Origin: Candidatus Rifleibacteriota bacterium | Lineage (GTDB): Bacteria > Muiribacteriota > Ozemobacteria > Ozemobacterales > Ozemobacteraceae | Length of the DNA: 31,824 nt | Assembly (NCBI GenBank): GCA_051747585.1 | Contig: JBNJGH010000030.1 | Location: forward strand, 1 to 31,824 | Direction of reading: 5' to 3' | Shown: positions 3 to 29,979 of the stretch, in pieces | Position numbering within the stretch: position 1 is the stretch's first letter | Layout: every line of letters begins with the position of its first letter | Translations under genes and position numbers: made by a program | Notes under the pieces: model-generated | What the model saw: only the letters and a program-made list of their open reading frames with translations | Told to the model about the DNA's origin: nothing | The model's database searches: none

Positions 3-101
3 AAAATAGAGTTGAAGCCCGAAAGCCGTGAAATGATAAAAACCTGGTTTCCAGACGCAGAAAAATATGTTTGTTCTGCTGCAATCACAGCCAGAAAATA
101 A
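3..101 (+). CDS. arsM: 3' end of a gene entering from the left edge, probably arsenite S-adenosylmethyltransferase
   Basis: Frame 3 reads KIELKPESREMIKTWFPDAEKYVCSAAITARK* (TAA at 99-101). This resembles the ArsM C-terminus as I recall it (I.PK.ESREFIKDW.P...E.YVVSA.I.A.K). Only 32 codons are visible. Confidence 0.55.
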   Translation, partial: KIELKPESREMIKTWFPDAEKYVCSAAITARK

Positions 102-162
102 ATTTTTTAACTTTGTCTTTTCAGTGGCTGTGGGGGTAGGACATTAACTGTCGTTTGTCGGT

Positions 163-239
163 ATCGGTATTTATTAAATTAAATTATCCTGTTTTCGTCA
201 TTCCGGCCGAATGAAATGAGAACCGGAATCCAGGGTCAG
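163..239 (+). repeat. Repeat family C copy 1 (CGTC-tagged REP-like palindrome with AT-rich flank)
   Basis: 77 bp containing CGTCATTCCGG...CCGGAATCCAGGGTCAG. It aligns ungapped to the reverse complement of 19106-19182. Confidence 0.85.
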
Positions 240-275
240 TTTAATAGCAGGGGATACAGAGGTCCGCCCCTAAGA

Positions 276-533
276 TTTTATTTCTTTTGTCAAATATCGA
301 ATTTTAACCACAGAGATCACCGAGGACACTGAGACGATTTTTTAATCTTTTTCAGCCGTGGATTGTCCTTTGGACAATTAGCCGGCGGTTTCACCGTCCG
401 GCTTTCCCTTCGTCAGCAAGCCTTCAGAAAAACACAGGTGTTTTTCTGAAGGCTTGCTGACGAAGGGAACAATGGCTGAAAAAGATTCTCTGTGCTTCTC
501 TGCGAGCTCTGTGGTTATTTTCTTTGTGGTTTG
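276..533. repeat. Repeat family A copy 1 (flanks on - strand, core on + strand)
   Basis: IRs AATCTTTTTCAGCC 344-357 / GGCTGAAAAAGATT 474-487 enclose a 116-bp core (358-473) with a perfect 32-bp stem (404-435/438-469). The flanks are reverse complements of the flanks of copies 2 and 3. Confidence 0.95.
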
Positions 534-1647: not shown

Positions 1648-1650
1648 AAG

Positions 1651-1842
1651 CAGTAATAATCCATTTAGTAATATCAGCGAGTTTCAATACATTTTTGTTT
1701 TTTTTAATGAAAATTTTTAGAATATCAAAGATTGCTTCGCTTTGCTCGCAATGACTGCCCCGTATTGTCATTGCGAGGAGCGTAGCGACGAAGCAATCTA
1801 AATGTCTTGAAACGGTTTATAAAAACAAATGGAGGATTACTG
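1651..1842 (+). repeat. Repeat family B copy 1 (nested inverted-repeat, MITE/REP-doublet-like)
   Basis: Outer IR CAGTAATAATCCATTT/AAATGGAGGATTACTG; second IR GTTTCAATACATTT/AAATGTCTTGAAAC; inner AGATTGCTTCG..CTCGCAATGAC-N11-GTCATTGCGAG..CGAAGCAATCT. Homologous to 9409-9626 and 29757-29962. Confidence 0.92.
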
Positions 1843-1859
1843 GTTTTTAAGTAATGATT

Positions 1860-9316: not shown

Positions 9317-9353
9317 TTATTTCTTTCTGGCTTGGAGGCTTCGTGTGAGGCAA
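9317..9353 (-). repeat. Motif D copy (CCTCACACNAAGCC..AAAG)
   Basis: The reverse complement TTGCCTCACACGAAGCCTCCAAGCCAGAAAGAAATAA matches segments at 15645, 18797, 23543 and 26358. Confidence 0.7.
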
Positions 9354-9408
9354 ATTCTTTTCTGGAACACACTGATTTTCGTTGACCGAGAAATTCCTGA
9401 AAAATGCG

Positions 9409-9626
9409 TAGTAATTATCTATTTGGTAATATTGGCGAGTTTCAAGACATTTTTGTTTTTTTTATAAAAATTTTTAGAATAGCAAAGATTGCTTCGTCGT
9501 TCTGCTTCGCATAAAGCTTCGCAGAACTTCTCGCAATGACAGTTCCAAGTTGTCATTGCGAGGAGCGTAGCGACGAAGCAATCTAAATGTCTTGAAACGT
9601 TTATACAAACAGATGGATAATTGCTG
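9409..9626 (+). repeat. Repeat family B copy 2
   Basis: Perfect 14-bp IR GTTTCAAGACATTT/AAATGTCTTGAAAC and the same inner doublet as copy 1. The left arm has an extra branched insert, GTTCTGCTTCGCATAAAGCTTCGCAGAAC. Confidence 0.92.
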
Positions 9627-18665: not shown

Positions 18666-18796
18666 GCTGTCTCCTCTTATCCGAATGCTATGATTAATTT
18701 CTTTCACAATAATACAATAATCTTAAGCTGACAAGTGCCGACAAAAACCCTGGGAATTCTCGGCCAATGATTACTAAACTGTTTAAAAAAAGAATA

Positions 18797-19040
18797 TTCC
18801 TCACACCAAGCCACAAAGATAATTACCACAGAGCCCTCAGAGCAGCACAGAGAATCTTTTTCAGCCATGGATTGTCCTTTGGACAATCAGCCGACGGTTT
18901 CACCGTCCGGCTTTCCCAGCAACAGCAAGCCCTCAGAAAAGCACCGGTGTTTTTCTGAGGGCTTGCTGTTGCTGGGAACCATGGCTGAAAAAGATTAAAA
19001 AATCGGCTCCGTGCCCTCGGTGATCTCGGTGGTGAAATTT
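18797..19040 (+). repeat. Repeat family A copy 2
   Basis: Perfect 18-bp IR AATCTTTTTCAGCCATGG 18853-18870 / CCATGGCTGAAAAAGATT 18979-18996; long stem 18913-18978; ~9-nt-period flanks (CACAGAG.. / CTCGGTG..). Confidence 0.95.
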
Positions 19041-19105
19041 AGAAAATTGGTAAAATACAATTTATTTTAGGAGACTGCTGAGGTTTTCCATTGCAAATTA
19101 TTTTC

Positions 19106-19182
19106 CTGACACTGGATTTAGGCTCTAATTTTGTTCGGCCGGAATGACGAAAATAGGGTAATTTAATATAACAAATACCGAT
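19106..19182 (-). repeat. Repeat family C copy 2
   Basis: The reverse complement ATCGGTATTTGTTATATTAAATTACCCTATTTTCGTCATTCCGGCCGAAC...TCCAGTGTCAG matches 163-239. Confidence 0.85.
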
Positions 19183-26357: not shown

Positions 26358-26628
26358 TACACCAGGCCTCAAAGCCACAAAGAAAATAACCACAGAGCTC
26401 ACAGAGCTACACAGAGAACCTTTTTCAGCCGTGGATTGTCCGTTGGACAATCAGCCGGCGGTTTCACCGTCCGGCTTTCCCAGCAACAGCAAGCCCTCAG
26501 AAAAACACTGGTGTTTTTCTGAGGGCTTGCTGTTGCTGGGAACAAGGGCTGAAAAAGATTAAAAATCGGCTCCGTGGCCTCGGTGATCTCGGTGGTGAAA
26601 TTTTGATATTTGCCAGAGAGAAATAAAA
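26358..26628 (+). repeat. Repeat family A copy 3
   Basis: IRs 26417-26430 / 26547-26560, 116-bp core 26431-26546, perfect 32-bp stem 26477-26542. Same orientation as copy 2. Confidence 0.95.
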
Positions 26629-29756: not shown

Positions 29757-29962
29757 CAGAAATTATCCATTTAGCAATATTAGCAAGTTTCCAGATATCT
29801 TTGTGTTCTTTGCTATGAACTAAATTTTATCATATCAAAGATTGCTTCGTCGTTCTGCTCCGCAGAACTCCTCGCAATGACAATTCAGGACTGTCATTGC
29901 GAGCAACGCGAAGCAATCTAAATGCCTTGAAACGGTTTCTACAAACAAATGAAAAATTACTG
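29757..29962 (+). repeat. Repeat family B copy 3
   Basis: CAGAAATTATCCATTT/AAATGAAAAATTACTG ends; AGATTGCTTCG..CTCGCAATGAC-N11-GTCATTGCGAG..CGAAGCAATCTAAATGCCTTGAAAC. Confidence 0.9.
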
Positions 29963-29979
29963 GTCGTTATATAGAATTG

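Follow-up and report, generated by a model that had tools for sequence, protein, structure and literature searches.

What turns a short stretch of DNA round between two identical inverted repeats (IRs) is the question raised by a dispersed repeat of a Candidatus Rifleibacteriota bacterium, three copies of which lie in the stretch analysed here (contig JBNJGH010000030.1, 31,824 nucleotides, hereafter the window). A sequence-only reading of the window had proposed that the 116-bp structured core of the repeat is inverted by a trans-acting recombinase, belongs to a 144-bp mini-element inserting in either orientation at one site of a host repeat, or flips by template switching at hairpins. Flip/flop of the core is real and recurrent, and the flip is probably a by-product rather than a regulatory switch. 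Three features had escaped the earlier reading, namely an enclosing MITE, the GxxExxY origin of the arms around the core, and a second flip nested at the tip of one hairpin.

The element is built in three layers, with a MITE of ~369 bp outside, an imperfect inverted pair of arms (A and B), each composed of three phased CAC(N)GAG units, and the unit IR-core-IR innermost (Table 1). All coordinates first given for the three copies and their 116-bp cores were found to hold; the cores read on the + strand in all three, and the flanks of copy 1 are swapped and reverse-complemented, as had been described. The inversion breakpoints were also correctly placed within the IRs: the bases just inside the 14-bp IR move with the core and the arms stay with the flanks, position 17 being G on the side of hairpin H1 in 93 of 99 copies and T on the side of hairpin H3 in 94 of 99. 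The extent of the copies had been drawn too short, and the TIRs lie ~110 bp beyond each IR, in decayed form in the three window copies. Folded as single-stranded DNA, each 144-mer (IR-core-IR) gives a closing stem with three hairpins (z = -16 to -18; none of 200 shuffles folded as well), that is, a four-way junction with a closing stem of 14-16 bp, two short hairpins (H1 and H2) and a long one (H3) of 31-32 bp. The element is non-coding. A coding reading of the H3 arms was dismissed by eye because stops occur, and Rfam gave no match at the gathering score in the window. Another palindromic repeat, which we take to be of the CGTC-tagged REP type, adjoins copies 1 and 2 on their B side, oriented alike at both (window 163-246 and 19099-19182), and repeat families accumulate at these same intergenic sites.

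Table 1. Positions in the window of the parts of the three copies and of one control repeat.
Copy	Feature	Position	Strand	Description
1	B arm	307..333	-	three CAC(A/C/T)GAG units, 9-10-bp phasing, GxxExxY-cassette type
1	14-bp IR	344..357	+	closing stem; contains inversion breakpoint
1	hairpin H1	362..378	+	7-bp stem; flips almost never
1	hairpin H2	381..402	+	bulged 9-10-bp stem; no flipped case seen
1	long hairpin H3	404..469	.	32-bp arms, perfect pairing, variable middle
1	conserved H3 tip palindrome	429..444	.	AAAACAY-NN-RTGYTTT; common to gene-less GxxExxY-arm cassettes of Bacteroidales
1	partner IR	474..487	-	
1	A arm	488..515	-	copy 1 state BA (majority); H3 adjoins A arm
2	left TIR of enclosing ~369-bp MITE	18751..18764	+	decayed
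2	A arm	18825..18852	+	
2	IR-core-IR	18853..18996	+	state AB; IRs 18853-18866 and 18983-18996; H3 at 18913-18978; tip state G.T
2	B arm	19007..19033	+	
3	A arm	26389..26416	+	
3	IR-core-IR	26417..26560	+	state AB; IRs 26417-26430 and 26547-26560; H3 at 26477-26542; tip symmetric
3	B arm	26570..26596	+	
control	interior of unrelated MITE between 11-bp IRs	1729..1799	.	outside element; inverted relative to copy at 29839-29919

The orientation states of the core were compared across loci, from contigs. In the host assembly (G000), a fragmented MAG of 4.14 Mb in 330 contigs (93.6% complete), 101 IR-bounded copies were found, of which 99 measure 142-147 bp and 2 are longer and contain two long hairpins. 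Tabulated genome-wide, the core lies in state AB (H1 next to arm A) in 40 copies and in state BA (H3 next to arm A) in 61; copy 1 is therefore not the sole flipped copy among many but shares its state with the majority (61/101). The copies lie within contigs, with genes flanking them on either side; judged by crude ORF calls, 48 of the 62 scorable copies turn their A end towards a gene start, and 7 copies lie between convergent genes. Searches with the element DNA in 60 relative genomes returned weak partial matches in 2 and no full copy; none was found in plasmids, three patterns had no match in viral contigs, and the 5 matches of the junction pattern in metagenomes were all due to chance. 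Several variants were seen among the host copies. In a subfamily of five (C13:13941, C18:5112, C78:11961, C126:9027, C133:2673), a different phased-repeat segment replaces part of arm A, the IR and part of H3, and in C35:30229 and C323:2371 arm B is broken at the same place by an identical ~110-bp sequence that reaches the contig end and is possibly the end of another multicopy element.

Most of the ~215-bp gene-less cassettes lie within the ~369-bp MITE, whose TIRs start CAGCAATTCTCGGT; the TIR pairs around a cassette are spaced 367-378 bp apart and enclose no ORF. Both backbone halves were present in 57 of the 87 cassettes with room on both sides, and neither half was detected by blastn in 23, some of which are decayed MITEs, e.g., copy 1. 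One backbone was found to lack the cassette (C11:42995-43149). Among the 40 copies in which both TIRs were located, the target duplication matched at 9/9 positions in 13, at 8/9 in 8, at 8/8 in 1 and more poorly in 18. An autonomous IS of 1564 bp with both TIRs was identified in a relative (G022, L138:297-1860), and the 443-aa DDE_Tnp_1 protein it encodes matches IS4 weakly, below the cut-off, and falls below all NCBIfam cut-offs, so the IS possibly represents an unclassified IS4-like group. Another relative (G006) carries the left TIR and a homolog. In the host genome, the assembly of which is incomplete, only a distant transposase homolog of 22% identity was found (C307); two DDE_Tnp_1 matches in that genome were rejected as the cognate transposase, both lacking the TIR, and no IS256-type transposase was found. 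By its TIR, TSD and cognate IS, the element is a MITE. Like the prokaryotic MITEs of DDE (IS4-like) transposases, it is non-coding, short (~369 bp), bounded by TIRs and a 9-bp TSD, and accompanied in relatives by an autonomous IS with the same TIR; unlike them, it contains an interior cassette that is more conserved than the backbone, that also occurs without the backbone, and that flips.

Several relatives carry the same TIR in many copies, where it bounds MITEs whose interiors are unrelated. Such MITEs, of 278 bp and 287 bp, in G017 (L098-L117) and G015 (L087) have interiors unrelated to this element that also fold, into a long stem capped by two small hairpins; no flip was evident among the few of them listed. 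Many contig ends of a further relative (G003, L118-L137) fall within ~55 bases of this TIR and are of two types, which suggests a collapsed multicopy element of the same family. Internally deleted forms of the 369-bp MITE, joined at short microhomologies and some with intact TSDs, were observed at window 9320-9392 and at host C3:10954-11083, C318:58-270 and C5:57153-57409.

Two nested segments of the element occur in both orientations, the core of 116 bp enclosed by the 14-bp IRs and, within it, the ~10 bp at the tip of H3. The H3 stem contains one mismatch, 4 bp from the tip, and this block is found as exact reverse complements: 45 copies were in tip state A.C, 33 in G.T, 19 were symmetric and 1 was of another kind (n=98, one copy with a changed tip being left out). 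The tip state is independent of the core state (Fisher p=0.24), and 15 copies with otherwise identical cores differed in both, with core states at 13:2 and tip states at 10:5. The remaining inverted pairs hardly take part. H2 was reversed in 0 of 99 parsed copies; the H1 loop read TGT in 37 copies vs ACA in 1, and TTT in 22 vs AAA in 0; and the imperfect outer arms were inverted within the backbone in 0 of 57. Orientation also depends on copy age. In a young subfamily of 35 copies, which differ by ~1.5 substitutions per 107 sites, the core states stand at 31:4, as against 29:34 in the 63 older copies (p=3e-5), and the tip states at 23:9, as against 22:24 (p=0.04); flips therefore build up once a copy has been made, rather than being fixed at random by each insertion. 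On a tree of poor resolution, the minimum number of changes was 19 for the core among 92 rows (shuffle mean 27.9) and 22 for the tip among 74 rows (shuffles 23.3). The arms of H3 have been kept complementary throughout: its middle has 61 distinct arm sequences, and mismatches occur in at most 4 of 95 copies at any position other than position 4, where they occur in 76 of 95 (3 gapped copies were dropped). Positions 2, 3 and 5-8 of the tip are altered in 1 of 95 copies, in a stem whose middle reaches a diversity of 0.63, and the arm motif columns and the H1 and H2 stems are invariant while the MITE backbone drifts.

A second MITE of the window, unrelated to this element, served as a control. 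It measures ~213 bp, has a related TIR start, surrounds a GTCATTGCGAG palindrome and is present three times (window 1650-1850, 9410-9620 and 29758-29970), its interior between 11-bp IRs being inverted in one of these relative to another (Table 1). Of the 37 copies genome-wide, 25 share one orientation, 9 have the opposite one and 3 have homogenised arms, and the inner spacer alone is flipped in 2 of 22 scorable copies. As an unrelated MITE flips too, flipping is a property of palindromes in this genome and not of this element.

We lean towards the reading that a gene-less GxxExxY-type hairpin cassette, carried in a MITE, has the core as its four-way-branched centre, and that the core flips passively when the strand being replicated changes template from one inverted arm to its perfect match. 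The ~369-bp unit would have been copied, and the 9-bp duplications left, by a DDE transposase belonging to the family seen in relatives; after insertion, template switches between strands would invert a segment lying between long perfect arms, and young copies would keep the orientation of their founder while old ones approach 50:50. Fold-back switches would rewrite one arm of H3 from its partner, while the mismatch 4 bp from the tip would persist because it would lie inside the fold-back primer, and copies may also swap segments by gene conversion. Of the three routes first proposed, switching at hairpins is the one that fits best. It agrees with the way flipping depends on stem length and on copy age, with the tips that are symmetric and half-converted, and with the behaviour of the control family. 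According to the portions of the literature that bear on the process, template switching between inverted arms homogenises the arms and, if intermolecular, inverts the spacer reversibly (PMC8604942; also PMC8794818, PMC5941160), and in yeast such inversion was seen only with arms >9 bp (PMC8604942). Perfectly complementary arms, reversible inversion and the need for long perfect arms are shared by the present element. It differs from the cases in those portions in being nested at two levels, in nearing equilibrium over ~100 paralogous copies, and in its structured spacer of 116 bp, as compared with the 2-5 bp of the yeast inversions (PMC8604942, PMC8794818, PMC5941160); the length of the spacer counts against passive switching.

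The arms relate the cassette to the GxxExxY proteins (PF13366), which are encoded in 29 of the 87 genomes of the phylum. Arms of this type flank the PF13366 gene in 5 of 24 printed loci (scored by eye, with 11 loci unparsed), the others using different heptamers. The H3 arm may itself be such a phased array in degenerate form, which would account for the conservation of its A columns. In the phylum, the H3 tip had one match outside the host genome, inside a CDS; against GTDB its pattern had 3 matches, 2 of them chance and 1 within a gene-less cassette of a Bacteroidales MAG that also contains a GxxExxY pseudogene with matching arms. With a related Bacteroidales cassette as the query, matches were obtained in 46 of 101 genomes of that genus, many to the arms alone, and AAAACAY-NN-RTGTTTT was exact in 13 of the 30 returned loci, a count that includes the query and its first match and is enriched because the query contained the palindrome. 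In these cassettes the palindrome usually occurs twice, beside an inner arm heptamer. Five Bacteroidales genomes picked for their matches held 70, 21, 7, 4 and 2 palindrome sites vs 2, 3, 0, 3 and 0 for reversed-pattern controls, and PF13366 is encoded in every one of the five. Among 251 genomes drawn at random from the Bacteroidales family, the 18-nt tip was matched 9 times vs 5 for the control, and only 2 matches lay in cassettes; the tip is therefore not enriched family-wide, only in cassette-bearing genomes. Gene-less GxxExxY-arm cassettes are abundant in one Bacteroidales genus (G374, G391, G407, G149 and G061; L164-L213, L218), where the paired 16-bp palindromes mostly lie ~40-60 bp apart (70 sites in G374). 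No obvious flip was seen by eye in the Bacteroidales cassettes examined.

Some selection appears to act on the arm motifs, the H1 and H2 stems and the H3 tip. Passive switching does not account for a near-invariant H3 tip beside a variable stem middle, for invariant arm motif columns and H1/H2 stems beside a drifting backbone, for the same tip palindrome in gene-less GxxExxY-arm cassettes of Bacteroidales, for the cassettes with no detectable MITE backbone (23/87, some merely decayed), or for near-identical young cores on many backbone haplotypes. A wider reading, which we regard as conceivable though rather unlikely, is that the cassette is the gene-less replicator of a cross-phylum mobile system driven by the GxxExxY nuclease, with the arms and tip as putative recognition sites; hairpin nicking and self-primed repair would yield parvovirus-like flip/flop isomers, and the cassette would hitch-hike here on a DDE MITE. 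Its narrower form, that a cassette nuclease (GxxExxY/PDDEXK_3 or a recruited host factor) recognises the arms and tip and nicks the extruded hairpin, so that hairpin-primed repair produces isomers, arm homogenisation and spread as a chromosomal analogue of parvovirus terminal resolution, is in our judgement unlikely. It draws on the arms shared with GxxExxY genes, on the near invariance of the tip and its conservation across phyla, on the palindrome counts given above, on one tip-bearing Bacteroidales cassette (L218) lying immediately upstream of a GxxExxY gene that shares its arms, on the cassettes devoid of a MITE backbone, and on T7 endonuclease I as the sole, non-significant PDB match of the GxxExxY profile (E 0.24-0.32). 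Yet young copies have flipped, and a GxxExxY gene was found neither in the host genome (93.6% complete, its contigs often broken at the repeat) nor in 5 congeners; flipping is seen in the unrelated MITE too; none of 35 gene-bearing loci contains the tip, nor do 10 of a further 11; the family-wide sample showed little enrichment of the tip; and the fold of the GxxExxY protein is a generic PD-(D/E)XK one (best Z 8.2), in which Hjc (Z 6.4, rmsd 3.1, 84 aligned) is tied with many non-resolvases.

The termini of AAV and other parvoviruses and the telomeres of poxviruses have small hairpins inside a closing stem and occur as two reverse-complement flip/flop isomers. The analogy with AAV drawn in the sequence-only reading is good as to shape, since both features recur here, and does not extend beyond it: the present copies lie inside a chromosome rather than at the termini of a linear genome, they have no linked Rep/HUH or resolvase gene, and the isomer ratio is age-dependent rather than ~1:1. 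Hairpin priming of these viral termini is mentioned in PMC8794818. A likeness in layout is also found with REPINs and their RAYT/TIRYT genes, as portrayed in portions of PMC3116915 and PMC3733652, as these are gene-less inverted doublets, have arms that also flank a small nuclease gene, and contain a hairpin spacer with compensatory changes. The element is REPIN-like in this respect only and does not belong to the REPIN/RAYT group: its arms are phased heptamer arrays and not GTAG/CGTC REPs, the linked gene encodes a PD-(D/E)XK nuclease (PF13366) and not an HUH tyrosine transposase, its core is a branched four-way structure, and the sole Y1_Tnp gene of the host, at the end of contig C196, has no such arm on its assembled side. 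That gene (C196:4566-5205) is RAYT-like, is cut by the contig end, and is followed downstream by short GATTCCG(G/C) repeats.

Exchange between loci offers another route, in which orientation changes mainly through gene conversion, the core being copied from another locus and landing either way thanks to the identical IRs. We consider this improbable as the main cause. Four-gamete conflicts affect 229 of 306 left-by-right pairs of backbone sites vs 8 of 38 nearby pairs, Mantel r between modules is near 0 in older copies, and two copies carry two different long hairpins, all of which speaks for exchange; yet part of the mosaicism may stem from chimeric assembly or homoplasy, homology of the arms should tend to preserve the orientation already in place, and the independent flips of the tip are left unexplained. 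In the two copies with different long hairpins (C52:1327-1518 and C92:8205-8401), these flank H2, one of them replacing H1, and the copies look like flip x flop recombinants.

Inversion of the core at its 14-bp IRs by a trans-acting site-specific recombinase, acting as a switch, is very unlikely. The breakpoints do fall inside the IRs, and the IRs are conserved, in part owing to how the copies were ascertained; yet the tip, which flips at least as often as the core, has ~10 bp and would not plausibly be inverted in this way, its spacer presumably being too short for synapsis, an unrelated repeat flips too, the young subfamily is far from 50:50, no clear link was seen between core orientation and the direction of neighbouring genes (by crude ORF calls), and the core of copy 2 has no promoter- or terminator-like content. 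Phase-variable invertible elements such as fim, hin and shufflons also invert a segment between short IRs; the present element departs from them in its ~100 dispersed copies with no linked recombinase found and no promoter cargo detected, and in its nested flips at unrelated stems.

Insertion of the 144-bp IR-core-IR as a mini-element of its own, either way round at one site of a host repeat, has its terminal IRs and two orientations to commend it and is most improbable, as 0 of 96 arm pairs in the host genome were empty, all 101 IR pairs lie in arm-like flanks, and a ratio that tracks copy age, at 31:4 in young copies vs 29:34 in older ones, contradicts random insertion. Equally improbable is an assembly or library artefact, of the kind that a fragmented MAG with many contigs ending in the repeat might yield: the 14-bp IR should be shorter than the usual assembly k-mers, both tip states are present in contigs of runs X1 and X5, and a contig of run X1 equals window 62-417 with 0 differences across unique flank, arm, IR, H1, H2 and the start of H3. 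The left junction of copy 1, which a misassembly might have produced, is therefore not private to this assembly, run X1 being available as contigs only and perhaps not independent of the source sample; in runs X2, X3 and X5, no piece joining the unique flank to the core was among the matches listed.

Passive template switching at perfectly paired stems remains the reading we prefer for the flips. The ~100 paralogous copies, being of differing age, form a natural time series in which inversion and the homogenisation of arms can be read against the length of the stem, a kind of record that is rarely available in bacteria. They also warn that the presence of both orientations between short IRs need not mean phase variation. 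In the open-access literature, no description was found of GxxExxY-linked repeats or of internal flip/flop in bacterial MITEs, and the GxxExxY-linked repeat family is apparently undescribed. PDDEXK_3 is listed as of unknown function in the relevant part of PMC3424549, and a 16-bp palindrome kept in the gene-less GxxExxY-arm cassettes of two phyla is a concrete, testable candidate substrate for this widespread nuclease family, which makes the conserved tip a good experimental lead.
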